From Candidatus Woesearchaeota archaeon (GTDB taxonomy: Archaea; Nanobdellota; Nanobdellia; Woesearchaeales; JAGVYU01): DNA of 58,848 nucleotides. The notes beneath the pieces are model-generated. The model worked only from the letters and a program-made list of their open reading frames with translations. It made no database searches and was not told the DNA's origin. Shown one piece after another: positions 4,208-17,063 of the stretch. The stretch is taken from contig JBDROB010000047.1 of the NCBI GenBank assembly GCA_043810355.1, positions 1 to 58,848 on the forward strand, given 5' to 3'. The position numbers and the translations under genes are program-made. Position 1 is the stretch's first letter, and each line of letters starts with the position of its first letter.

Positions 4208-4288
4208 ATGAGGTATATAAGTCTTTGTTGTAATCCTAATAGCAACAAAATAGTAATGTTTAAATATAAACTAAACTCTCTTTATTGT

Positions 4289-5008
4289 ATGAATACAGAA
4301 GAACTGCAAGAATTTGGATTATCAAATACAGAAGCAAAAGTATATTTAGCTTTGCTTGAGCTTGGAAAAAGCAAAGCAGGGGAGATAACTAAAAAATCTG
4401 CTGTAAATAGGACTAATGTTTATGATGCTCTTGAAAGACTTATTGAAAAAGGTCTTGTTTCTTATATTTCAGAGAATAATAAAAAAGTCTTTGAAGCTGT
4501 AAATCCTCAAAGACTTCAAGAAATTCTAAAAGATAAGCAAGATAAACTAGGAAAAACAATAGAAGAACTTAAATCCAGATACCAAAAAAGCCAGAAGCAA
4601 GAAGATGCTTTTGTCTTTAGAGGCAAGAATGGAATAAAATCTATTTTTGAAGATATTTTAAACGAAAAGAAAGAGCTTTTTTGCTATGGTGCAGAAAGCA
4701 GGTTTAAAGAGATGTTTCCTTTTTATCAAAAGCATTGGAATAAAGAAAGAGCAAGATTAAAGATAAAGGTTAAAATGATTTACAGCGAAAGAGTTAAACA
4801 AGAAAAGAGAAAAGAAAATCTTAAACTTCTTGAAATGAAGTTTTTGCCTGAAACTTATGATTTTCCTTCTATGGTTATGATTTATGGCAATAGAGTTGTT
4901 ACGATTGTTTGGCTTGAAGAGCCATTTGGATTTATGATTAAGAGCGAAGAAGCGGTAAAGAGTAATATGAATTTCTTTGAGTTATTGTGGAAGATAGCCA
5001 AAAATTAA
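4289..5008 (+). CDS. TrmB-family transcriptional regulator
   Basis: LSNTEAKVYLALLELGKSKAGEITKKSAVNRTNVYDALERLIEKGLV is the TrmB wHTH. ATG 4289 fits the family N-terminus better than the track start 4208. Confidence 0.8.
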   Translation: MNTEELQEFGLSNTEAKVYLALLELGKSKAGEITKKSAVNRTNVYDALERLIEKGLVSYISENNKKVFEAVNPQRLQEILKDKQDKLGKTIEELKSRYQKSQKQEDAFVFRGKNGIKSIFEDILNEKKELFCYGAESRFKEMFPFYQKHWNKERARLKIKVKMIYSERVKQEKRKENLKLLEMKFLPETYDFPSMVMIYGNRVVTIVWLEEPFGFMIKSEEAVKSNMNFFELLWKIAKN

Positions 5009-5406
5009 AGAATCAAAACAGCTTCTTCTGGCTTTAAAATCCTGATTTTATTGTATTCTTTCAGTTTCAAAAGGTGCTTGTCCTGGCTTACGATAAAATC
5101 TGCTTCTCCATAAACCGCAGCTTCAACAAACTTATCATCTTCTGGGTCGTCTTTTACTGCTTGTATCGCTACAATAGGATCTACTATCATTGAGTTTTCT
5201 ATGATAAGATTTTTCCATTCTTCAATTAATTCTTCATCCATAGAAATCTTGAAGCTTCTAAGAGTTTCTACCAATTCTTCAATAAGTTGAGGAGAACTTA
5301 CTAGCTGAAACTTTCCTCTTTTCCATTTGTCTATGATTTGAGAACAAAAGTTTCCTTCCCAGAATATTCCTGAGATGAATACATTCGTGTCTAAAACTAT
5401 TCTCAT
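5005..5406 (-). CDS. vapC: PIN-domain toxin (VapC-like)
   Basis: MRIVLDTNVFISG N-terminus plus acidic residues. 4-nt overlap with the upstream antitoxin. Confidence 0.85.
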   Translation of the reverse strand: MRIVLDTNVFISGIFWEGNFCSQIIDKWKRGKFQLVSSPQLIEELVETLRSFKISMDEELIEEWKNLIIENSMIVDPIVAIQAVKDDPEDDKFVEAAVYGEADFIVSQDKHLLKLKEYNKIRILKPEEAVLIL

Positions 5407-5663
5407 TTTTTCCTTGCTTCGCTTATAGCTTCAGATACATCTGCTTCTTTTAATCCTCTCTTTTTTGCGAATTCTCTTGTTTTTTTGAGCAGTTTATCTA
5501 CTCCGCTAAAAGAAGGCATTTCAAGTTTCTTTAAGACAATAGTGTTATCTTCTCCGATAACTACAAATTTCTCTCCTTCATGTATTCTCAATCTGTCTCT
5601 TAGACTTTGAGGTATTACTATTTGCCCTCTTGAACTCATACTTGTTATTTCAATATTTTCCAT
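5403..5663 (-). CDS. vapB: AbrB/SpoVT-type antitoxin
   Basis: SSRGQIVIPQSLRDRLRIHEGEKFVV swapped-hairpin motif. Overlaps the PIN gene. Confidence 0.85.
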   Translation of the reverse strand: MENIEITSMSSRGQIVIPQSLRDRLRIHEGEKFVVIGEDNTIVLKKLEMPSFSGVDKLLKKTREFAKKRGLKEADVSEAISEARKK

Positions 5664-7198
5664 TTTTATCCTCCTGTAAGTTTATATTATTGGTAAGATT
5701 ATCTTATTTATAAGCTTTTCGGTTTGTTTTCGTTCGTCTGCCCCCAAATTCGTTTAGAAAATTTTTGCTTAGTAGTAGGGGTGGTGGGCGGGGAGAGTGG
5801 TGGGAGGTAAAACCTTGAGCGATTAGCGAAAGGCTATCTGTTGCATCAGCAACTCACCTGCACCCCCTTTAAATTAAAAGTTTGATTGTGTATAATCCTT
5901 GTTAAACTCTCCGAAGGATTGATTTTTAGTGCAACGATGCCGAAGGCAAAAAATCAAAGTAAAATTTCCGTTTCCAATAAATATCTGCGAAGCAGACTAA
6001 ATGTCCGAAGGACAGAGGCGAGAACCCCCACCTTGTGCTTCGCACAGAATTACTCTCTTGACAAATTGAAAATAAATCCTTTTTCTCCATCACTTACAAC
6101 TCTAAGCCTTTCTCCAGTTTCAATAGGGTATCTATGTTCGTGTTCCCTTCCCCCATAAAATGGCTGACTCAACGAATCTTTTGCATTAAGATACAAGATT
6201 CCTTTCTTTCTTGAAACTTCCATGTCGTGATGTTCTCCTAAATCTGTATAAGCTACAACAGCCCTTTTATTAGGTGTCCAATTATCAAGATGTGTGCAGT
6301 AAAATTGAAGATATGGCGTTACAAGAACATATCCTTCAGGATGACTTTTATCAAATTCTTCCAGACCATCTGCATCAACGCCATCTACCCCATAATAATG
6401 AGTAATTGAAAATGCTTCGCCTGTAAAATCACCAGTTCCATTTAAGTCATGTGTTGATGCAATTAACCCTTTATCTTGTAATTCAGGCATCTGAAACTTT
6501 TCAGAATCAGATAATCGGGTTAATTTTCTTGCCTGAAGAAGATTATACTGCCAATCTCCAGAATTACCGTAAGTTGCAAATTCCATTATTATTGGATGCT
6601 TTAACTCTCTTTCAGCAAAAAGAGCAATACTTGCTAAATTTTCAACTTCTTCATTTGACCATCTTGAATAATTTCTGGACATAACAACGGGACTTGATGT
6701 ATCAGGGAATACAGTTCCATCTTCAGCATATTCTCTGAGAAATGCTTCAATATATCTTTCACTATCATAAGCAGATTCTCTTATTATTTTTACAATATCT
6801 CTTGGTGCTGGAAATTTAGAATAAACAACTCCCGTATGCTCTTTTTTATCAACCATTGCCTGAACAATAACAGGAATTCTTTCATCAAGTACAGCACCAA
6901 CTTCACCAGCATATTTATTTGCCTTTTCAGTTTTTGCACTCTTTCTCACTTGATGAATTGTTCTGACTAATTTCTCTCTTGGAACATCAAGGTATGTTTC
7001 AAAAATTCCATCAAAAGAGTGTTCTCCATTATCTTCTAAAACTGATGAAGACCTAACCGCATATCTCTCAGAACCCAAAGAATCTGCGACTCCAATTATA
7101 TCTTGATAACTTCCTGCTAAGTTTAGTGAAGATGGAACTACAAAGAAATTAGGAACTATAACTTTCCCGCGATAAACGACTTCTTCGTTTAAATTCTC

Positions 7199-7782
7199 TA
7201 GCTAGAAATCCCCACCACTTGTGGTAGGGGATGAATAGCGTAATGCTTATAGAATACTGATTCTAGACATTACGGATTGGTAGAATGATGAGCCTCACAA
7301 AGGAGGTGAGGCCCAATGAGATACTCAGACCACAAATACAAACATGGTATCGGTTGGACGATGTGCCATATACAATGGGTCACAAAGTATCGATATAAGG
7401 TATTTAGTGACTTGAAGCTAAAAAACCTTTTGGAAATTCTGCTTATGGAGTCTAGCAGAAGACACAATTTTAACCTGTTGGAGATGGAGGTTCAGCCTGA
7501 TCATGTGCACGCTTTAGTGGCATTAAGGCCAAGTATGTCTCCATCTTTTGCTTTACAGGCAATGAAGGGCTACACTAGCAGATTGCTTTTCCTTATGGAG
7601 GAGGAAACTCTTTCCAGATGGTATTTTGATAATGGAAAAGAAAGAAGCCTATGGGGAGATGGTAAATTCATTGGGTCTGTCGGACATATAACTCTAGAAA
7701 AAGCAAAAGAGTACTTAGAGAAACAAGAGGCTTATCATGCCAAAGAATCCCCACCCTTTAGGGTTGGGGAGCATTAATTTTT
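7199..7782 (+). mobile_element. IS200-type insertion sequence (tnpA only); ends approximate
   Basis: Subterminal hairpins CCCCACCACTTGTGGTAGGGG (7210-7230) and CCCCACCCTTTAGGGTTGGGG (7749-7769), each preceded by ATCCCCACC. Splits a host reading frame. Confidence 0.8.
7316..7777 (+). CDS. tnpA: IS200/IS605-family Y1 (HUH) transposase TnpA
   Basis: HIQWVTKYRYKVF and QPDHVHALV (HUH) motifs, about 150 aa. Strong AGGAGGTGA box upstream. Confidence 0.9.
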   Translation: MRYSDHKYKHGIGWTMCHIQWVTKYRYKVFSDLKLKNLLEILLMESSRRHNFNLLEMEVQPDHVHALVALRPSMSPSFALQAMKGYTSRLLFLMEEETLSRWYFDNGKERSLWGDGKFIGSVGHITLEKAKEYLEKQEAYHAKESPPFRVGEH

Positions 7783-8009
7783 CTTCAAGAGATTTTAATG
7801 TTAAGATACCTCTTGCTTTTCCACCAACTAATTCAATTGGTGCTTCTCTTTCTGTATCTAAAACTAATTTGCTCATAATAATATTGAAAAATTAAACATT
7901 TTATAAATGTTCCTACTTTGGAGTTAAAAGTGGATGGTAGGGGGTTCTCGCCTCTTTTGTTTCTTTTTCTAAAAGAAAGGAAACGGAAATTTTATTGAGC
8001 ATAAGCCCT

Positions 8010-8705
8010 GTTAAGTGACCCGAACGGAATGAAATGAAGTGAGAGCGCAGCGTGGTCGACCGAAGGGAGAAGTTGAATTTCTGGACTCATTTTTCTAACT
8101 TTTTTATCGCTTCTTCGTACCACTGCCGAGCAATTTGTTTTGCTTTTTCAGAAGTAATTCTATTAAACATCCAATCAAACTTTTCTTTGACTTTTTCTTT
8201 TCCTACTTCAGAAACATGTTTGGTTAAAAATGTGGGAACATTATTTTCAAAAAAGCTGATGCTGTCTGCGTCTTTTAGTAAATTTTGGTCGTCATTTCCG
8301 CCCTCTTCATGTTTTGAGATTAGCATTTTGACTCTATCTATTAATTTCTGCTCGGCGCCCTCTTTTTTCAAAAAATCTGCCATGATTTCTGCGCCTCTTT
8401 CTTCATGAGGACGAAAGAATTCAGGATCAGCATAGCTGTGCGAATGTTTTTTGTCTTTGACATCTTGTTTTCTGAAAGCTCTTTCAATGTCATGAGCAAT
8501 AGCAGAAATTAATAGTGCTTCATCAGCATCAGCTTTTAACTGTTTAATCCAATAAACTGTTCTTTCAAAATGTTTGATTTGAGATGTTTTGCCAAGTTTT
8601 GTAAATGAATCTATTACAAATTGCTCGGCTTTTTTGTATAAATTTTCAGTCATATTATTAGAAGAAGCGATAAAGTATATAAAAGTTGTCCAGAAATTCA
8701 ATTTC
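8010..8705. other. module 2 of the inverted-repeat-bracketed gene array
   Basis: GTTAAGT box at 8010-8016. GC box GCGCAGCGTGGTCGAC at 8045-8060. Arms 8069-8086 GAAGTTGAATTTCTGGAC / 8688-8705 GTCCAGAAATTCAATTTC (18 bp, one G.T). Cargo is the HD-domain gene (minus strand). Confidence 0.8.
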
Positions 8706-8707
8706 AC
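8087..8707 (-). CDS. HD-domain phosphohydrolase-like protein
   Basis: ISAIAHDIERAF (HD) and further His/Asp. ATG at 8653 (MTENLYKK) is a more likely start, because the first 18 codons lie in the repeat arm. Confidence 0.7.
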   Translation of the reverse strand: MKLNFWTTFIYFIASSNNMTENLYKKAEQFVIDSFTKLGKTSQIKHFERTVYWIKQLKADADEALLISAIAHDIERAFRKQDVKDKKHSHSYADPEFFRPHEERGAEIMADFLKKEGAEQKLIDRVKMLISKHEEGGNDDQNLLKDADSISFFENNVPTFLTKHVSEVGKEKVKEKFDWMFNRITSEKAKQIARQWYEEAIKKLEK

Positions 8708-8716
8708 TTAAGTGCT

Positions 8717-9724
8717 GTTAAATGCCCCGACGACCGAAGGGAGGAGAATGCAATGTGGTCGACCGACTGAAAGGAGGGAGAAGTTGAAAAAATGGCGTAT
8801 CAGGGGCGAAGCCCAATCCACTAAAAAATTCAAGGGTCGGCTCAATATTATTTCTAATTTAGAAGTAGTAACATTATCAAAAGATTTATAAGTATATGTT
8901 TAATTATTAATGAAATATGAGTGAAGATAATCAGATTATTTTGTATGAAGGAAGTCCATTAGAAAGAATTGCATCTTCTGATATAGTTTTAAGAACTGAT
9001 AAACCATTAATGGAACAGAAAAGGCTATTTTTGGCAAGTGATGTTGTTGTGGGAGAATATGGTGTAACTGGTTTTGTAGTAGTTGATAATAAACCTGAAA
9101 AAAGGTGGATAAGTTACACTGAAGGAGATAAAACTGGTGTAAGCTGGGATCCAGAGTACCACTCTCTTGAATTTACTATGTATGGACTGGATGAACCATT
9201 AAGGAAGGCACATTTTGCTAATACAGATGAAGGTTTTAAAATGATTAGGTATTTTATTTTACCTTCAAATGTAAGTCAATTCTTTAGAACTGATAAATTC
9301 TTGGGATATCCCATGATTGATAAGTGTTGTAGAGAAGGTACGCTCCCAGAAGAATTTGATGAAGTTGAAGTAAATCCAGTATATGCATTCCATGGAGAAG
9401 AAAGAGAAATTATAGATAGAATAATCGAAAGGATTTCTCCAAATCTACAACAAATTGGTGAATCCAGATTTTCTTGGGAAGATTTTGGACATCAAGTATA
9501 TTTTTCATTTCATCCTTGGCAAACATATAAACCAGTTCTTGAAGCTGGAGAAGAATCAGTTGTTAGAGCTGTGAGAAATTTTGATCAATTTTTATCAAGA
9601 TTTGATGAAAGAAAAAAGCTTCAAAGAAGGGATTTAGAAATCCAAGGAGCACAAGAGTACAAAGGAGTTCTTCCACCATCTGAATAATTGAGTCGACCCT
9701 TTCTATATTTAGCCATTTTTTCAA
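8717..9724. other. module 3 of the inverted-repeat-bracketed gene array
   Basis: GTTAAAT box at 8717-8723. GC box TGCAATGTGGTCGACC at 8749-8764. Outer arms 8784-8796 TTGAAAAAATGGC / 9712-9724 GCCATTTTTTCAA (13/13). Inner arms 8832-8846 AAGGGTCGGCTCAAT / 9687-9701 ATTGAGTCGACCCTT. Cargo is ORF 8917..9687 (plus strand). Confidence 0.8.
8917..9687 (+). CDS. hypothetical protein (module 3 cargo)
   Basis: ORF track, balanced composition, no motif recognised. Confidence 0.55.
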   Translation: MSEDNQIILYEGSPLERIASSDIVLRTDKPLMEQKRLFLASDVVVGEYGVTGFVVVDNKPEKRWISYTEGDKTGVSWDPEYHSLEFTMYGLDEPLRKAHFANTDEGFKMIRYFILPSNVSQFFRTDKFLGYPMIDKCCREGTLPEEFDEVEVNPVYAFHGEEREIIDRIIERISPNLQQIGESRFSWEDFGHQVYFSFHPWQTYKPVLEAGEESVVRAVRNFDQFLSRFDERKKLQRRDLEIQGAQEYKGVLPPSE

Positions 9725-9810
9725 TTGCATTTAATTATGTTATATTCCCTCTTTAGAGGCTGAGCTCAAAGCGAAGAGTTTTTACGTAGTAAAAATTGAA
9801 TATAATCGCT

Positions 9811-10841
9811 GTTAAATACCCCGAGCCGAACGAGCGAAGCATAGTGAGGTGAGAGTGCAACGTGGTCGAGTACCGCAGTTCACAAAGTGAACGAGGAACG
9901 GAGAAGTAAAATTCTTACTTTATCAATCCTGCGAAGCAGACTATATTTAGGGGGTTTCCGTTTATCAAGGGCGTAAGCCAATTTAAGTGAATGGGTTAAG
10001 GGGAAAATCTTTTCTGAGTTAGATTTGAGTAAAGTTTATATTACTAATTATATTCCCAAAAATAATGACTAACAATGTAAATGAAGCTGCATCAAGGATG
10101 GAGCAATTGATAAACTCATTTGAGATTGTTCCAATAAAGCCTTTAGCAGGTAAGGCAATAAAAGTTCCTTCTGATGATCCATGTATATTAGGTAAAGGTG
10201 ATTCTTCTGTGATATTCCGGTTAGGCGAATTTACTGACGGGGATTATTTATGTGGCAAACTTTATGGTGCCAGGTCTCCAAGATATTCCTCTGGCATTTG
10301 GGAAATGGGGTTTTTATATATCTCAGGTTATATTATTTGTGGTTATGATAAGGGCTTAGATAATAATATTGATGTTTTAAGTAGGGTCGGTTTACAAGTG
10401 CCCCCTCACCATCAATTTAAGGCTGAAACCCATGGTGGAAAATTTACCCCCCATTATATAATCGTAGAAGATTTTACTCAAGGAGGCAGATATAATGTTG
10501 TTGATGCTGTTGATTTTGATTTCAATTCAATTCCAAATGGTGTTTCATTAGAAAAGGCATATCGGAAGACATTGTCAAGAACTTTAAGACGTTTGAGGTC
10601 AAAAAAGTATGTATTGCATTGTCATGGCCATGTTAGTGAAGCAGAGGGAGGGATTGACAATGCAATTGAGCATTTGTTTTTTGTTCAGCATAGGCAAAAT
10701 GGAGAAGGAAGATTAATTGTAGGGGATCTTGATCATATTGAAGCAAGGTATGTTCCATTTAGTGAAAGATTGCCAAAATGGATTCAGAATTTTCCCATTA
10801 TCTCTAATTTAGGAAACCCCCGTTCTAAGTAAGAATTTTAT
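9811..10841. other. module 4 of the inverted-repeat-bracketed gene array
   Basis: GTTAAAT box at 9811-9817. GC box GTGCAACGTGGTCGAG at 9855-9870. Outer arms 9906-9918 GTAAAATTCTTAC / 10829-10841 GTAAGAATTTTAT. Inner arms 9950-9959 GGGGGTTTCC / 10812-10821 GGAAACCCCC. Cargo is ORF 10065..10832 (plus strand). Confidence 0.8.
10065..10832 (+). CDS. hypothetical protein (module 4 cargo)
   Basis: ORF track, no confident motif. Confidence 0.55.
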   Translation: MTNNVNEAASRMEQLINSFEIVPIKPLAGKAIKVPSDDPCILGKGDSSVIFRLGEFTDGDYLCGKLYGARSPRYSSGIWEMGFLYISGYIICGYDKGLDNNIDVLSRVGLQVPPHHQFKAETHGGKFTPHYIIVEDFTQGGRYNVVDAVDFDFNSIPNGVSLEKAYRKTLSRTLRRLRSKKYVLHCHGHVSEAEGGIDNAIEHLFFVQHRQNGEGRLIVGDLDHIEARYVPFSERLPKWIQNFPIISNLGNPRSK

Positions 10842-10855
10842 TGTATTTAATCCTT

Positions 10856-11943
10856 GTTAAGTTCTTTTCCCATACGAAGTGTGGGAAAACTGCGTCCGCA
10901 GAGTTGAGAATTTGTCTTTTTTCAAGCACGGAGTGCCATCAAAATAATTCATCCAGGGGCTTTGGTCGTTATTACATTATACACTAAATAGTGGTAACAA
11001 ATAGAAACATTTATAAAGAAAATGTATTCAATCTTTATTATGTTGGAGCAAATTACGTATCAGAATAATCAAGAATTACAGGATGCACAATTAACTACAA
11101 TAGTTAATGTTGCAAGTGAAATTTACCAATCAAATGGAAATAAACCTATTAGAATTCTTGATTTAGCAACAGGTCCAAATGGATTTAATCCAGTTATTGT
11201 AAGAAATTTAATTGATAGAGGCATCGATTATGAATTGGTTTTATCAGACATTTCTCCAACACATTTCAGAATTGGATATGAAAATCTTGAACAAGAATTA
11301 TCTCCTGAAGAACTTCAAAAAGTAAAATGCGTACTAGCAGATTCTAGAGATTTTAAAAGAAATCTTACTGAAGTTCCATTATGGGGTGAAGGTAGAAAAC
11401 CGCTTGAAGAAGTTCTTGAAGATCCAAGATACCAATTTTTACAAACAGGTTATCAAGATGGTCAAAGAACAGTAGATTTTACTGATGGTGCTTTTGATTT
11501 GGTTATTGGAAATATTCCTTATGGAAGTATAAATACAGGAGATTATTCGGATGCAATAGATGAGTCTGCAAGAGTTTTGAAACCTAGTGGATATCATATT
11601 GTTGATGAAATGCATGTTGAAAATGTGCAGAGTTATGGATTGCGAGCTTGGTGTACCTTAAAAGAAATGTTTGGAAAACCATTAAGAGAAGCTTATCCAA
11701 CTGCAAGAAGAAGCTTATCGGCAATTTCTAGAGCAAGAGCAAAAGATCTTCAAGAAGTCTCATCTAAATTGGATTCAGTATTAACACCTGTTGCTGTTTA
11801 TTCAACAACTTACGTATATGATACAGAAGAACGAATTCCTGAACAAACTCTCCAAAAAGGAGATTTAGTAAAAAGAGCTGTATTTGTACATCAGAAAGTT
11901 GATTAAGCCCAAAGCCCCCTTCTACTAAAAGACAAATTCTCAA
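10856..11943. other. module 5 of the inverted-repeat-bracketed gene array
   Basis: GTTAAGT box at 10856-10862. Outer arms 10904-10920 TTGAGAATTTGTCTTTT / 11927-11943 AAAAGACAAATTCTCAA (17/17). Inner arms 10954-10965 CAGGGGCTTTGG / 11909-11920 CCAAAGCCCCCT. Cargo is the methyltransferase gene (plus strand). Confidence 0.8.
11022..11906 (+). CDS. class I SAM-dependent methyltransferase with NPPY-like motif (possible N6-amino methyltransferase)
   Basis: ILDLATGPNG (motif I) and DLVIGNIPYG (motif IV-like). Confidence 0.65.
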   Translation: MYSIFIMLEQITYQNNQELQDAQLTTIVNVASEIYQSNGNKPIRILDLATGPNGFNPVIVRNLIDRGIDYELVLSDISPTHFRIGYENLEQELSPEELQKVKCVLADSRDFKRNLTEVPLWGEGRKPLEEVLEDPRYQFLQTGYQDGQRTVDFTDGAFDLVIGNIPYGSINTGDYSDAIDESARVLKPSGYHIVDEMHVENVQSYGLRAWCTLKEMFGKPLREAYPTARRSLSAISRARAKDLQEVSSKLDSVLTPVAVYSTTYVYDTEERIPEQTLQKGDLVKRAVFVHQKVD

Positions 11944-11947
11944 TTGA

Positions 11948-12018
11948 ACTTAACAACATTTAAACGAATCCATTGGAATTCGGGGACTACAGGGGCTGTA
12001 GGGTTAATGTTGTTAGGA
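11948..12018. repeat. closed attC-like hairpin with core-like ends
   Basis: ACTTAACAACATT (11948-11960) pairs with AATGTTGTTAGG (12006-12017). The ends resemble RYYYAAC / GTTRRRY. Inner hairpins are CGAATCCA/TGGAATTCG and CTACAG/CTGTAG. Confidence 0.65.
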
Positions 12019-12063
12019 TCAAATCTGAAAAAGTGGTGTAACTTATGAGTGAACTTGGATAAC

Positions 12064-12118
12064 AAAAACCGCACTAATCCCCTACTTGAAGGTAGGGGTA
12101 TTTTATCATGCGGTTTTT
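12064..12118. repeat. closed hairpin element
   Basis: AAAAACCGCA / TGCGGTTTTT (10 bp) enclosing CCCCTAC/GTAGGGG. Confidence 0.7.
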
Positions 12119-12122
12119 GGGA

Positions 12123-12192
12123 TTGAAAATCTCGCACTAAAGTGCATGGTATTCCTTATCCCAGACAAAATCTCGCTGTGCGAGATTTTCAA
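12123..12192. repeat. closed hairpin element with TTGAAAA...TTTTCAA termini
   Basis: TTGAAAATCTCGCAC (12123-12137) / GTGCGAGATTTTCAA (12178-12192), 15/15. Inner GCAC-TAAA-GTGC. Confidence 0.75.
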
Positions 12193-12367
12193 TAATTAAA
12201 TAATGTAAAAAAGGGCAAATGATTTCCGGATAAGTTGGTAATCTTGTGGTATGTATTTAAATGAAATGAAAGATTTTCAATGAAATCAAAGAGGCTTCGA
12301 TTCTGCTGAAAAAATGCATGATTTTTTACCATAATACATTAAAAGGTCTTCAGGCTATAAAATATTT

Positions 12368-13246
12368 ATGGATATCTTAGAGGTAGTGAAAAAGGAGATG
12401 CTTCGTCGGAGATTGAGCAGAAGGACGATCTCTACATATCTTTTCTATATCAGGAAGTTCTTGCTTTTCTGTCCAAAACCTCCAAAAGAGTTCTCTAAAA
12501 AGGATATAAAAGATTTCCTTGAGCAGAAAGGCTATCTTGAAAAGTCTGGGAGCACAACTAATGTTGCCCTCATGTCCCTTCGTTTCATGATGGAAGAATG
12601 CCTTAGGAAAAGCATGAGGTTGAATATTAGGTATTCAAAGACTCCTAAATCTCTGACTGCTTGCTTGACAAAGGAAGAGGTTAGAATGCTGATTGATTCT
12701 TTCAAGAATGAAAAGCATAAACTGCTAATTTCACTCATGTATGGAGCTGGATTAAGAGTGAGTGAGGCTGTCAAGCTGAAGAAGGAGGATATTGATCTTT
12801 GTTCAGGATATGGATGGGTTAGAAGAGGAAAGGGCAACAAGGATAGGCCCTTTATTATTCCTATAAGTTTGAAACAAGGTATAATTAAAAGAATGGAGAT
12901 TGAAGGAACCTATATCTTTCCAGGAAGGAGTCAACATCATTTATCTGTTAGATCAGTGCAACAGATACTGAAAAGGGCAGGAAGAAAAGTGTTGAAAAAG
13001 CATGTCAACCCTCACATGCTAAGGCATTCATTTGCAACGCACTTGATTGAAGATGGAACAGATTTGATGGCTATTCAGTCACTTCTTGGCCATAATGAAG
13101 CTAGGACAACAATAGAATATCTTCATGTTGTTAAGCCAAAGATGCTGAATGTTAAGAGTCCGCTTGATTGTTTGGAGGATAAAAATGATGTCTCAAAACC
13201 ATGCAAAAATAGAAAGATTTATACAACAAAAATCTTTGATTTTTGA
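12368..13246 (+). CDS. tyrosine site-specific recombinase (Xer/IntI-like)
   Basis: N-terminal SAM-like domain (LSRRTISTYLFYIRKFLLF). Catalytic signatures AGLRVSEA, HMLRHSFATHL, LLGH, TTIEYLHV. C-terminal VKSPLD. Confidence 0.9.
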   Translation: MDILEVVKKEMLRRRLSRRTISTYLFYIRKFLLFCPKPPKEFSKKDIKDFLEQKGYLEKSGSTTNVALMSLRFMMEECLRKSMRLNIRYSKTPKSLTACLTKEEVRMLIDSFKNEKHKLLISLMYGAGLRVSEAVKLKKEDIDLCSGYGWVRRGKGNKDRPFIIPISLKQGIIKRMEIEGTYIFPGRSQHHLSVRSVQQILKRAGRKVLKKHVNPHMLRHSFATHLIEDGTDLMAIQSLLGHNEARTTIEYLHVVKPKMLNVKSPLDCLEDKNDVSKPCKNRKIYTTKIFDF

Positions 13247-14166: not shown

Positions 14167-16386
14167 ATGAAAGCAGTCTTCATAGATTGCTACAGAAAAA
14201 AGAATAAGATCATTCTGTGGCTGAAAAAGGGAAAAGAAAACATAATGTTAGAGGATAGTTTTACCCCAAAAATCTATGTGAGAGGCGATGATCTTAAGGG
14301 TATAAGGGAAACTTTGCAAAAAAATAGTAAAAATAGTATTAAATCAAGATTTGTAAAAAAAAACACTTTCTTTAAACAGAATATTTGGGTTCTGGAAATC
14401 TCTCTGCCTTTGTCATCTTTTTATCAAAAAAGAAAACTTGTTGAAAAACTTCTAGACTATACTGCAGAAATCTATAATGCTGACATAAAGCCAGAAGAAC
14501 ACTATATGTTTGAGAAAGACATATTTCCTTTAGCCAAGGTTGAAATAGAAAACAAGAATCATTGGCTTGTCTCAATCAGGTCTTTGGACAATCCTTATGA
14601 TATCCATTACAATATCCCTGACTTCTCTATCGCAAAGATAAAAGTCAAGACAAAGCATAATCTTTTCCGAAGGTTTGAGACATCACTGCAGGCAATCTCA
14701 ATAAACAATAACATATTTGAAGGTGATGAAAAGATAATATTATCCAAATTCAAGAAAGAGTTTGAAAAACTCGACCCTGATATTGTTGCAGCAGAGCATG
14801 GCAATCTTCTGCTTCCATTTCTTAAGGGCAGATTCAAATCCCATAATCTCCTTTTTAGCTTTAACAGGTTTGAAAATGATGATTTCACGCATAAGCAAGG
14901 TGAGCATTTTCATTCATACAACAAGGTAGTATTCAGGACTCATTCCATCTTCCTGAAAGGAAGGCTTCATTTTGATTCAAGGAGCTTTTTCACAGATGAT
15001 ATCACTGCACAAGGTGTTTTTGACGGAGCAAGGATGTGCAGGCAGACTATCCAGAGGACTCAGATGCGTTCTGTAGGAGCAGCTATCACAAATCTGTTGA
15101 TTTATGCCTCATACAAAAAAGACTTCCTGATACCATACAAGACAGGGGTGTATGAAAGATTCAAGACTTTGAAGCAATTATACATAGCTGACCATGGCTC
15201 AGTCATATTTGAGCCAAGAGTTGGCTTCCATAATCATGTTGCTGAATTTGATTTTGTCTCATTATACCCTAACATAATGAACAAGTTCAATCTCAGCCCT
15301 GAGACATTGTTCTGCAGATGCTGTAAAGATAATAAAGTCCCAGAATTGCATTACAATTACTGCACTAGAAATAGAGGTATTGTATCAGATGTTGCAAAAA
15401 ACATTATTGAGAGAAGGATTGAACTAAAAAAGATAGGGACTCCTGAGGCAATGAAAAGGGCTTGTTTCAGCAAATGGTTATTGGTCACTATGTTTGGCTA
15501 CCAAGCCTTCAGGAACAAGAAGATTGGGATAATTGAGACTCATGAGAGCATCCAGGCATATGCAAGACAGGCAATAATGAGATCTGTGAGATTAGCAGAA
15601 CAGCAGGATTGGGAAGTTATCCATGGAATAATTGACTCAATCTATGTAAAAAAGAAAGGTTTCAATGAAAAAGACACTGCAAGATTAGGAAGAGAGATAT
15701 TCCTCAACACAAATCTTGAGATCAATCATGAGGCTGATTACAGATGGATTGTGTTCCTGCCGTCTATAAATGACAGCAGGATCCCTGTCCCTACTCATTT
15801 TTATGGCGTCACTGTGGATAATGAGATCAAGATGAGGGGCATTGAGGCAAGAAGAAAAGACACTCCTGGAATAATTGTTGAGATGCAGGTTGAGATGATA
15901 AAGGAATTGAGCAAGGCAAAGGATGAGCTCCAATTCAGACAACTATTCCCAAATATTTTCTCAATACTTAAACGATATGTTGAAATGCTCCCTTTTGCCC
16001 ATGCTGATAATCTGGCTGTCTACAGATCTTTAAGAAAGGCTGATTATGCTAATAATATCCCTCAGAAGATTGTTGTAAATCAATTGAAAGAAAAAGGGTA
16101 CAGTATTGATCCTGGTCACACTATTGCTTACATCATAGCAGACATCAATAACAGGAATCCTAAGAAACGCTACTGCTCTTTAGAGGATTACAAAGGAAAG
16201 TTTGATCTTAGCAAATACACTGACATGCTTGTGAGGGCAACCTTCTCTTTGCTTCAGCCTTTTGATGTGACTGTGCCTGATTTATATGGGGTTTTAGCAA
16301 AGTCAAGGCAGCTTGTTATGTCAGATTTTGCTATGTCTGATTTTGCAGAGAAAGTAAAGATATCTGAAGTGGCTCTTAGAAACTAA
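14167..16386 (+). CDS. polB: divergent family-B DNA polymerase without recognisable 3'-5' exonuclease catalytic residues
   Basis: Motif A DFVSLYPNIM, motif B-like KWLLVTMFGY, motif C HGIIDSIYV (single Asp), MRGIEARRKD. At the Exo I/II positions the sequence is SIAKIKV and EHGNLLLPFL instead of DxE / NxxxFD. Confidence 0.85.
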   Translation: MKAVFIDCYRKKNKIILWLKKGKENIMLEDSFTPKIYVRGDDLKGIRETLQKNSKNSIKSRFVKKNTFFKQNIWVLEISLPLSSFYQKRKLVEKLLDYTAEIYNADIKPEEHYMFEKDIFPLAKVEIENKNHWLVSIRSLDNPYDIHYNIPDFSIAKIKVKTKHNLFRRFETSLQAISINNNIFEGDEKIILSKFKKEFEKLDPDIVAAEHGNLLLPFLKGRFKSHNLLFSFNRFENDDFTHKQGEHFHSYNKVVFRTHSIFLKGRLHFDSRSFFTDDITAQGVFDGARMCRQTIQRTQMRSVGAAITNLLIYASYKKDFLIPYKTGVYERFKTLKQLYIADHGSVIFEPRVGFHNHVAEFDFVSLYPNIMNKFNLSPETLFCRCCKDNKVPELHYNYCTRNRGIVSDVAKNIIERRIELKKIGTPEAMKRACFSKWLLVTMFGYQAFRNKKIGIIETHESIQAYARQAIMRSVRLAEQQDWEVIHGIIDSIYVKKKGFNEKDTARLGREIFLNTNLEINHEADYRWIVFLPSINDSRIPVPTHFYGVTVDNEIKMRGIEARRKDTPGIIVEMQVEMIKELSKAKDELQFRQLFPNIFSILKRYVEMLPFAHADNLAVYRSLRKADYANNIPQKIVVNQLKEKGYSIDPGHTIAYIIADINNRNPKKRYCSLEDYKGKFDLSKYTDMLVRATFSLLQPFDVTVPDLYGVLAKSRQLVMSDFAMSDFAEKVKISEVALRN

Positions 16387-17063
16387 TAAAACTCAGGTTT
16401 AATCTCTTCAAGGGCTTTTGCTCCCCTGTGAATTCTGGTCTTTACAGTATTTAATGGAACATCCAACATATCGCTGATATCCTTATAAGATACATGATAG
16501 ATTCTGTTCATGATTGTAGGAGTTAATAATCTTTCATCAATGCCTTCAACAATGTCATGTTTCCCATTAAATATTGCTTTATGGACCAATTTACGTGCTG
16601 CTGGATCATGGGCATATTGTTCTGGAGTCACATCAGGAAGGACTCTGGTTTCATAGGATGGTGGGCTGAAATTTAGGCCTATCTCATTATCTTTTGGATA
16701 TCTTTCTGGGTCTTCAAAAATCTTTCTCTGATTGCCAGATTTTTTATAATGCTTAAACAGAATATGTTCTGCAACAGTAAAAAGCCAGGTTTTTGCAAAA
16801 CCTTTGTCAGTGTATCCGCCTGTAGAATAGCTTTTCCAAGCTTGTAAAAAAACCTCTTGTTTTAGGTCTTCAGCTAAGTCAGGTTTTCCTGTCATAGAGA
16901 ATAAGTAATTACGTATGCCACGTTCGTATTGATCATAGAATTCTTTTGTAAATCTTTCCTGTAGCATTTCAATTGACAAGGCTGTGAGCGGAAAAGGCCT
17001 GATATTGTCAGGTCTAAGAGAATCAACACTACCTTTAACAACCTCTGCTAAATTACTTCCCAT
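16383..17063 (-). CDS. sigma-70 family (ECF-type) sigma-factor-like protein
   Basis: Region 2-like AEDLKQEVFLQAWKSY...WLFTVAEHILFKHYKK. Region 4-like YKDISDMLDVPLNTVKTRIHRGAKALEE. Confidence 0.7.
   Translation of the reverse strand: MGSNLAEVVKGSVDSLRPDNIRPFPLTALSIEMLQERFTKEFYDQYERGIRNYLFSMTGKPDLAEDLKQEVFLQAWKSYSTGGYTDKGFAKTWLFTVAEHILFKHYKKSGNQRKIFEDPERYPKDNEIGLNFSPPSYETRVLPDVTPEQYAHDPAARKLVHKAIFNGKHDIVEGIDERLLTPTIMNRIYHVSYKDISDMLDVPLNTVKTRIHRGAKALEEIKPEFY

Follow-up and report, generated by a model that had tools for sequence, protein, structure and literature searches.

A probable integron analogue beside a XerA-family recombinase gene: a cassette array with split palindromes on a Woesearchaeota-labelled contig

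How does a row of genes with unrelated functions come to be enclosed, gene by gene, in nested inverted repeats which differ from one gene to the next? This question is raised by positions 5902-11953 of contig JBDROB010000047.1 of Candidatus Woesearchaeota archaeon (assembly GCA_043810355.1), a region located upstream of a gene for a XerA-family tyrosine recombinase without the IntI insertion; the whole stretch analysed, 58,848 nucleotides (nt) in length, is called the window below. Read against about 25 related loci (designated L with a number), the region is probably an array of six mobile cassettes in the chromosome, of which five carry genes and one is empty, and an integron analogue run by the XerA-type enzyme. 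A first-pass annotation of the same DNA had proposed an integron-like cassette array beside a tyrosine recombinase, a proposal which is supported. As far as sequences can tell, comparison of the loci demonstrates the cassette borders, whole-cassette transfer, array turnover, inversion of cargo at inner arms and re-use of arms with other cargo.

The inverted repeats are well beyond chance expectation. All nine arm pairs which the annotation had placed around the open reading frames (ORFs) are found where it located them, with the complementarity listed in Table 1. Counting perfect inverted repeats of at least 13 nt at a spacing of 300-3500 nt, 9 fall within 5880-11950, where 300 shuffles preserving dinucleotides predict 0.54 (maximum 4). 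The other 53 kb of the window contain only 6, which is chance level, and all three repeats of at least 16 nt are located in the array. Equally, the junction rule holds in every module, with AG before the left arm and G facing T; the right arm is followed by TTG, or by TTT in the case of module 2. The YTGTTAARY box indeed occurs once per spacer on the forward strand, starting, however, at 5899, 8008, 8715, 9809 and 10854, two bases to the left of the numbers originally given; an inverted copy at 11948-11956 lies beyond this set. The GC box thought to mark all spacers is present in four copies (5929, 8045, 8748 and 9855) and absent before module 5. Cargo types, gene orientations and the distance of 425 nt between array and recombinase gene are as had been described.

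Where the mobile unit begins and ends is told by cassette 2. Its HD protein is one of 16 proteins clustered at 90% identity, and the cassette DNA was recovered from two more arrays, L210/L211 (a Nanoarchaeota-labelled metagenome-assembled genome and a second assembly) and L212-L219 (labelled Nealsonbacteria, with contigs L213 and L215 also carrying the bacterial genes RuvB and TsaE). The copies in the three arrays are 92-94% identical at the nucleotide level and have the same orientation. The shared block, in the order leader, AG plus left arm, gene and right arm, spans exactly from TTAAGTGA, directly after CTG, to the last base of TTTCACTTAA, and the DNA beyond differs in all three arrays. 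Since the block includes the left leader and the right terminal box (R''), most of each 'spacer' belongs to the right-hand cassette, the arms are internal and the junction is a hybrid of two cassettes. The arms were therefore wrongly taken for the module ends, and a crossover at arm bases, between AG and T and between A and TTG, was dropped as a candidate. On the other hand, the box which had been likened to the integron core (TTAARY following G) coincides, judged by the borders of the shared HD cassette, with the point where cassettes begin. The outermost complementary layer, formed by 8-nt boxes termed R' and R'', had escaped the annotation, while the conserved A-TTG it saw is the outer part of a dif-like junction arm. 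Integron cassettes are defined by just this logic: the crossover falls between G and TT, and the left end of a cassette pairs with its own inverse core.

In these arrays, a cassette starts with R' (TTAARNNN, directly after TG) and ends with its reverse complement R'' (NNNYTTAA). Between the two boxes follow a leader, AG, an outer arm, an inner arm, the cargo, the complementary inner and outer arms and TT(G), which directly abuts R''; the leader is purine-rich, with small hairpins capped by C-GNA-G. Neighbouring cassettes are 5-6 nt apart, and each dif-like junction is composed of R'' of one cassette, these 5-6 nt and R' of the next. The complementarity between a cassette's own R' and R'' is 8/8 in five of the six window cassettes and only 6/8 in cassette 1, which looks like a hybrid of two of the recurring types into which the end boxes fall across genomes. 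At the four variable outer box positions, own pairs match at 3.83 of 4, neighbours at 2.0 and all non-own pairs at 1.88. Formulated as a strict grammar (TG, 8-nt box, leader of at most 130 nt, AG, a stem no shorter than 7 bp, TT and the box again as its exact reverse complement), the arrangement is matched with 0 mismatches by 17 distinct cassettes, of which the window contributes five; they come from nine genomes, have arms of 7-22 bp and all share one orientation relative to the recombinase; the window's other strand gives zero cassettes. With thresholds slightly loosened, L226-L228 add 16 exact-box matches of the same orientation, some with a common left end. No left end of a further cassette is found upstream of 5888.

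Arrays stand in the same position beside related recombinases in at least 15 loci, and a metagenome scan together with look-ups found this architecture in L130, L136, L140, L142, L152, L157, L226, L227 and L228. Array content turns over: the anticipated presence/absence variation is seen between the window and L001, between L213 and L214, and between the window and L224. L001, the recombinase of which is 86% identical, has nothing in common with the window to the left of the terminal site, and its homology begins at the terminal region and runs rightwards at 84-91%. L224, L225 and L220 share the left flank (TrmB, PIN, MazE) and cassette 1 with the window at 88-91%; L224 possesses one cassette compared with the window's six, directly before a recombinase only 47% identical to that of the window. 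L214 lacks the SSF-transporter cassette of L213 from the same sample set, and its junction unit is composite, the 5' portion corresponding to one of the flanking units and the 3' portion to the second.

Gene inversion between arms, one of the options that had been raised, has occurred in cassette 1, the cargo of which is inverted in L224, L225 and L220 relative to the window with breakpoints exactly in the 16-nt inner arms and the orientation outside kept. In L005 (recombinase 62% identical), leaders directly upstream of the recombinase gene are up to 94% identical to those of the window and are followed by AG, different arms and other genes; the leader of cassette 5 is the one 94% identical to an L005 leader standing before unrelated arms and cargo. 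Conversely, L005 and L210 have leader and outer, middle and inner arms alike on both sides (165 and 84 nt, 84-86% identity), with unrelated genes between the inner arms (three versus four). The description of the arms as private thus applies from cassette to cassette, but not to L005 and L210, where the same arms enclose unrelated cargo, nor to the end boxes with their recurring types. Taken at face value, these alignments show the arms as active borders, and leader, arms and R boxes appear to behave as a reusable chassis. Other scans contributed little: the window recombinase alone retrieved one useful locus from contigs, a duplicate of L001; the first metagenome pattern scan gave no match; and in viral sequences one 16-mer gave scattered single matches judged to be chance, while three specific patterns gave none.

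What enzyme might act on these units? The presumed catalyst is best matched by NCBIfam NF040815 XerA_Arch (194 bits, under the cut-off of 220), compared with 190 bits in two pieces for the integron integrase TIGR02249 (cut-off 265). In the PDB it aligns with Vibrio IntI4 (2A3V) at 1e-35, with about 45 IntI residues skipped, and with Pyrococcus abyssi XerA (4A8E) at 8e-35 in one piece. As the XerA and IntI scores are nearly equal, the IntI match is split and about 45 IntI residues are missing, the protein is considered a XerA-type enzyme without the IntI insertion. Eight related recombinases likewise lack the insertion; with XerA_Arch scores of 215-240 bits, five of them pass the cut-off and three fall just below.

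The presumed substrate resembles that of XerA as well. Seven junctions in the window have the form ATTGnnnnTAA-N5/6-TTAnnnnn, two inverted arms around a centre of 5-6 nt, in the manner of a Xer/dif core site with arms of about 11 bp and a centre of 6-8 bp, and the left arm of the boundary site, ATTGTGTATAA, matches the left arm of the P. abyssi dif site at 9/11 positions. This dif site reads ATTGGATATAA-TCGGCC-TTATATCTAAA and is recombined by P. abyssi XerA in vitro without partner proteins (PMC2958812). The internal junction sites all point in one direction, with only the terminal copy inverted. Cumulative GC skew over the 59-kb window has no clear turning point at the array.

In other arrays the centres are larger. 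In L210, 15 nt separate R'' and R', of which 9 nt form a mini-hairpin and 6 nt are left; in L212 and L152-type loci a 95-nt branched unit lies between the two boxes. Spacings of 15 and about 95 nt imply that these arms do not function as plain duplex core sites. Aligned over five loci (alignment A2; L152, L149, L142, L157 and L155), the latter unit measures 125-140 nt and possesses a strongly covarying 11-bp helix, two variable hairpins and the invariant elements AAG, TTTGGGTGA/ATTTGGGTGA and GAAC. From its sequence it is best read as an empty cassette. A canonical attC with an R''/R' outer helix was rejected, as the outer pair is complementary in some copies only, whereas the strongly covarying inner helix plays the part of an R box in an empty cassette. 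The idea that TTTGGGTGA...GAAC resembles a hammerhead was rejected as well, as the core nucleotides do not fit.

The cassettes probably move by site-specific exchange at the junctions, and it is likely that the adjacent recombinase carries out this exchange. In an excised circle, R'', centre, R', leader and all arms would join into a single palindrome, branched and 200-330 nt long, which has the crossover site at its tip and not at its base. A classical attC is cut near the base and stays on one side of the gene; here, the palindrome would be cut at the tip and its halves would flank the gene, which accounts for each gene lying within its own hairpin, the 'ORF in the loop'. Modelled with DNA parameters, circle junctions fold into a closing stem and a four-way junction of R-box hairpin and leader hairpins (z = -3.3 to -7.5). 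Folding of the top strand is favoured by the complementarity of own cassette ends at variable positions, and a strand preference is discernible: the + strand gives the more stable arm duplex in 14 of 17 cassettes and the more stable leader in 12 out of 16 with a leader, and CGAAG occurs 16 times against 0 times for CTTCG in 1071 nt of unique leaders. The C-GNA-G triloop is an unusually stable DNA mini-hairpin motif. A conserved G.T pair closes every stem, and among pairs changed between cassette copies 8 became G.T and 2 A.C. By analogy with attC, the palindrome may act as folded single-stranded top-strand DNA which joins the cassette ends, a proposal held with slightly less than even confidence. 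Recombination would then be structure-specific. That the arms also serve as sites of cargo loading or flipping is put forward tentatively.

Several observations weigh against reading the array as an integron analogue that works on folded DNA. The window junctions are perfectly good duplex sites. Among cassette copies, paired positions are changed at 8.9% and unpaired positions at 12%, which is not significant (Fisher p = 0.33), and the junction regions alone fold no better than shuffles in two of three cases (z = +1.1 to +1.3). A loop of 0.6-3 kb would need a supply of long single-stranded DNA. The centres vary by site (TCCTTG, GCCCTG, GTGCTG, TTATG, TCGCTG, CAACAT), and classical two-strand exchange would therefore be hindered. 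The L213/L214 exchange took place within a 43-nt identical stretch; it fits a crossover between centre and R' and equally fits plain homologous recombination. Excision circles, empty sites and activity of the enzyme are so far unobserved, and the recombinase could be the housekeeping dimer resolvase, its position next to the array reflecting insertion at dif. Finally, the assignment of loci to archaea or bacteria rests on database labels and a few marker genes.

One alternative is ordinary double-stranded Xer/dif recombination, in which integrative mobile elements exploiting Xer (IMEX) are stacked at the chromosomal dif, a housekeeping XerA is nearby by chance and the arms are insulators, terminators or relics. 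The recombinase scores as XerA, the junctions with their centres of 5-6 nt and arms resembling P. abyssi dif would serve such an enzyme well, and neither the lack of a significant excess of conservation at paired positions nor the ordinary folding of the junctions is a surprise. Yet own R' and R'' match perfectly at positions that vary between cassettes, which a duplex homodimer site does not need; the 15-nt mini-hairpin centre (L210) and the branched centre of about 95 nt (L212, L152 type) are unworkable as duplex; wobble pairs and C-GNA-G loops are strand-biased; and the arm hairpin is retained even in empty cassettes. This explanation is considered unlikely, while a system for programmed inversion resembling a shufflon or inverton, with the arms as inversion sites for flipping cargo, is clearly improbable. 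The exact flip of the cassette 1 cargo at its inner arms, cargo in both orientations within one array and a weak similarity of the recombinase to tyrosine DNA invertases would be in line with it. The arms differ, however, from cassette to cassette and have no shared recognition motif, and the HD cassette has kept one orientation in all three arrays. From the TATA-like boxes read inside the cassettes, cargo of either orientation appears to bring its own promoter within the arms, and flipping should therefore not switch expression. Moreover, inversion leaves R'/R'' boxes, whole-cassette transfer and empty cassettes unexplained.

The same promoter-like boxes bear on a structure at the RNA level, be it processing stems by which a top-strand transcript loops out genes as in rRNA operons or the 5'-3' panhandle listed by the annotation, which finds no support, since the left arm would be missing from the mRNA which a gene makes from its own promoter. 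A top-strand transcript would run antisense to two of the five genes, and mobility is directly seen at the level of DNA. While the G.U-compatible pairs are biased to the top strand and UUCG and GCAA loops occur occasionally, the dominant loop, 16 to 0, is the C-GNA-G triloop generally known as a DNA motif. Rfam 15 gave zero gathering-score matches except tRNAs in the window and nine related loci, and nothing credible at E <=5, and a tRNA scan likewise added nothing; the outer arms are uninterrupted helices of 13-17 bp, not suggestive of an archaeal bulge-helix-bulge stem with its two 3-nt bulges on either side of a 4-bp helix, for which no dedicated search was made. An RNA-level explanation is accordingly very improbable, and a foldback or terminal-inverted-repeat transposon, or a pair of miniature inverted-repeat transposable elements inserted at a preferred target, is hardly to be expected. 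Such elements would provide inverted termini with short common ends, and an IS200 element and hairpin elements are indeed in the window; the only transposase in or near the cassettes is, however, the unrelated IS200 TnpA, absent from sister copies. Arm sequences differ between cassettes and do not form the ends of one transposon family, as would be the case with a common terminal repeat, neither target-site duplications nor direct repeats flank the arms, and the mobile unit reaches past the arms to R' and R''.

Table 1. Features of the cassette array and its recombinase gene in the window; fractions give complementary positions of arm pairs.
Feature	Positions	Strand	Details
Left boundary junction	5888..5909	+	flank arm GTGTATAA, ATT before it; centre TCCTTG; R' of cassette 1 TTAAACTC
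Cassette 1	5902..8004	+	R' 5902-5909; AG 5958-5959; outer arms 5959-5975/7979-7995 (16/17); inner arms 6014-6029/7940-7955 (16/16); R'' 7997-8004
IS200/IS605-type insertion in cassette 1 gene	7196..7773	+	TnpA ORF 7316-7777; Pfam Y1_Tnp, E = 5e-24; end hairpins 7206-7232 and 7746-7770
Cassette 2	8011..8711	+	R' TTAAGTGA; AG 8071-8072; outer arms 8073-8086/8688-8701 (as 8069-8086/8688-8705, 17/18); R'' TCACTTAA 8704-8711
Cassette 3	8718..9734	+	R' TTAAATGC; AG 8782-8783; outer arms 8784-8796/9712-9724 (13/13); inner arms 8832-8846/9687-9701 (14/15); R'' GCATTTAA
Empty cassette	9740..9805	+	R' TTATATTC; short leader; AG; mini-hairpin TTTTTAC-GTA-GTAAAAA; TTG; R'' GAATATAA
Cassette 4	9812..10850	+	R' TTAAATAC; AG 9905-9906; outer arms 9906-9918/10829-10841 (12/13); inner arms 9950-9959/10812-10821 (10/10); R'' GTATTTAA
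Cassette 5	10857..11953	+	R' TTAAGTTC; AG 10902-10903; outer arms 10904-10920/11927-11943 (17/17); inner arms 10954-10965/11909-11920 (10/12); R'' GAACTTAA
Terminal region	11954..12054	+	centre CAACAT; arm TTAAACGA; two hairpins; site-like AATGTTGTTAGGATC (12006-12020); box AAAAAGTGGTGTAACTTATGAGTGAAC (12028-12054)
XerA-family tyrosine recombinase, 292 aa, presumed catalyst	12368..13246	+	Pfam Phage_integrase 1e-37

With respect to the individual cassettes (Table 1), cassette 1 carries a PPDK_N-like gene on the minus strand. This gene is interrupted by an IS200 element, overlooked by the annotation, which is absent from the cassette 1 copies in L224, L225 and L220 and is a secondary insertion, no part of the cassette system. 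Cassette 2 carries the HD/DUF4202 gene, also on the minus strand, with two further nested pairs in the coding sequence (8103-8116/8661-8674 and 8125-8138/8616-8629) that the annotation does not list; the segments encoding the C-terminus (8103-8138) and the N-terminus (8616-8674) pair with each other, and the 130-nt flanks fold at -83 kcal/mol with RNA parameters. Cassette 3 encodes a protein of 256 aa without a family match, a singleton in its 90%-identity cluster, and cassette 4 a 255-aa ORFan with zero homologues among 5.8 billion proteins; such singletons and ORFans are typical of cassette cargo. The empty cassette sits within the long third spacer, where the annotation had not picked it out; equivalent empty units are found in L227 and in L005, there as three tandem copies with the arms reduced to TTTGG-TAAAG-CCAAA. 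Cassette 5, with a leader of two hairpins, carries a methyltransferase gene. In the ORF list its start is placed at 11022, with a TATA-like box only 6 nt before it; an ATG at 11041 fits a leaderless start better, and the version starting at 11022 is absent from the protein collection.

Between the terminal site and the start of the recombinase gene, the box AAAAAGTGGTGTAACTTATGAGTGAAC/AAAAAGTGGTGTAACTnnnnAGTGAAC is kept in the window, L001, L002 and L005 and may have a role in regulation of the recombinase gene or be bound as a site. A 131-nt insertion at 12061-12191, not present in the syntenic L001, has a hairpin (12077-12103) resembling the end hairpins of IS200 and may be a non-autonomous IS200 derivative; its second hairpin, at 12120-12195, has the termini TTGAAAAT/ATTTTCAA, and similar hairpins occur at 1-136 and 375-445. 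To the left of the array, a G-rich box, GGTGGTGGGCGGGGAGAGTGGTGGGAGGTA (5780-5809), is 94% conserved in L130 (2048-2077), where the recombinase is only 51% identical. The gene for a TrmB-like regulator, accompanied in the window by a PIN/MazE toxin-antitoxin pair (region 4208-5663), recurs in or beside arrays (L130, L133, L210, L220-L225) and lies inside a cassette in L130; the regulator may be an accessory factor or simply frequent cargo. Farther away, two genes are each preceded by an identical 44-nt sequence, GACCACTGGACATTCTGCTGTGAGATATATAAATGAGTTCTGAT, in direct repeat (673-716 and 2782-2825). A 32-nt part of it also precedes the PolB gene of L001, and the repeat has the look of a promoter or operator common to these genes.

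As to the host, the source records of the closest recombinase relatives bear the names Woesearchaeota, Nanoarchaeota or DPANN archaeon. Another 20 genes of the window, scanned with Pfam, yielded zero domain-specific markers, and the archaeal assignment of the window therefore rests on the names of close relatives. A sigma-70-like gene (regions 2 and 4) is located at 16383-17063 on this contig, the closest relatives of which are labelled Woesearchaeota; either it is a bacterial acquisition or the domain assignment is in need of checking.

What would such an array mean? DPANN archaea and bacteria of the candidate phyla radiation (CPR) have tiny genomes and depend on hosts. A pool of cassettes shared between them, as suggested by one cassette with 92% identity on archaeal-labelled contigs and contigs with bacterial markers, would be a concrete mechanism of accessory-gene exchange. 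A tentative wider reading is that of an undescribed gene-capture platform common to DPANN archaea and CPR bacteria, composed of a XerA-type enzyme and a palindrome cut at its tip, with genes loaded, flipped or swapped in the hairpin loop of a reusable chassis. If true, the platform would be a route of gene exchange between two domains and make the genesis of cassettes visible. How integron cassettes are made has long been debated; in the usual view, integrons themselves go back to a Xer-like recombinase which acquired an insertion and turned to folded attC hairpins as substrates. The combination of integron cassette logic with a plain XerA-type enzyme and dif-like junctions could represent an intermediate or a parallel solution, and empty cassettes, re-use of arms with unrelated cargo and inversion of cargo at arms suggest a testable route, the entry of genes into a hairpin loop.

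How does the array compare with known systems? In the literature outside subscription journals, no description of a XerA-linked array with split palindromes was found. The array works like an integron, but differs from members of that class in the integrase domain, the contiguous attC and the arrangement of attI and promoter. In common with integrons, especially the sedentary chromosomal ones with uniform repeats such as the Vibrio cholerae repeats, it has a tyrosine recombinase beside a one-directional array of mostly single-gene cassettes, a cassette start of G followed by TTRRRY which is complementary to the cassette's own inverse core, repeats conserved within the array, a cargo of ORFans, toxin-antitoxin pairs and small enzymes, contents that vary among relatives and cassettes common to distant hosts. 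However, the array recombinase is without the IntI-specific additional domain around patch III, and its gene, instead of standing next to an attI upstream, follows the array past its downstream end as read on the top strand. There is no contiguous 3' attC hairpin (about 55-140 nt, R''-L''-loop-L'-R'), and the window junctions have no L boxes; the spacers were rejected as classical attC hairpins since the junction regions folded no better than shuffles in two of three. Where integron cassettes pair over 7 bp, complementarity here covers 13-22 bp and continues in additional nested helices, and a conserved leader lies inside the cassette. Integron cassettes are promoterless, are driven by a common promoter and have one orientation; here, the cargo is apparently self-promoted and found in either orientation (two of five opposite).

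Xer/dif systems share the XerA-family enzyme and the dif layout of the junctions, with the arm match to P. abyssi dif. CTX phage demonstrates that Xer enzymes can use a folded single-stranded hairpin. Different from Xer/dif and IMEX such as CTX phage, the array contains many direct-repeat sites with cassette-specific arms, and its mobile units, which bring along neither replication nor phage functions, are single genes; every unit has an elaborate internal palindrome. The pdif modules of Acinetobacter plasmids are similar in that discrete accessory-gene modules stand between Xer-type sites in different contexts. Their flanking sites alternate in inverted orientation and are themselves the inverted repeats, whereas here the sites are direct and the inverted repeats are separate, internal and cassette-specific.

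Archaeal integrons and attC clusters were reported by Ghaly et al. (2022), who describe classical contiguous attC sites and an IntI with the extra domain, with no mention of a split palindrome, a leader or a XerA-type partner (PMC9668308). In the same study, Nanoarchaeota genomes (Woesearchaeales, Pacearchaeales) contain attC clusters and 0 IntI genes, and the Nanoarchaeota attC tested has the ends CATAAC...GTTATG (PMC9668308), which resemble the R''/R' boxes of L152-type loci. The three accessions tried, GCA_018812845, GCA_016928155 and GCA_043805595, are not in its supplement. By this resemblance, the integrase-less Nanoarchaeota attC clusters may belong to the system described here, and the gene-capture platform, if true, may supply their missing enzyme partner.

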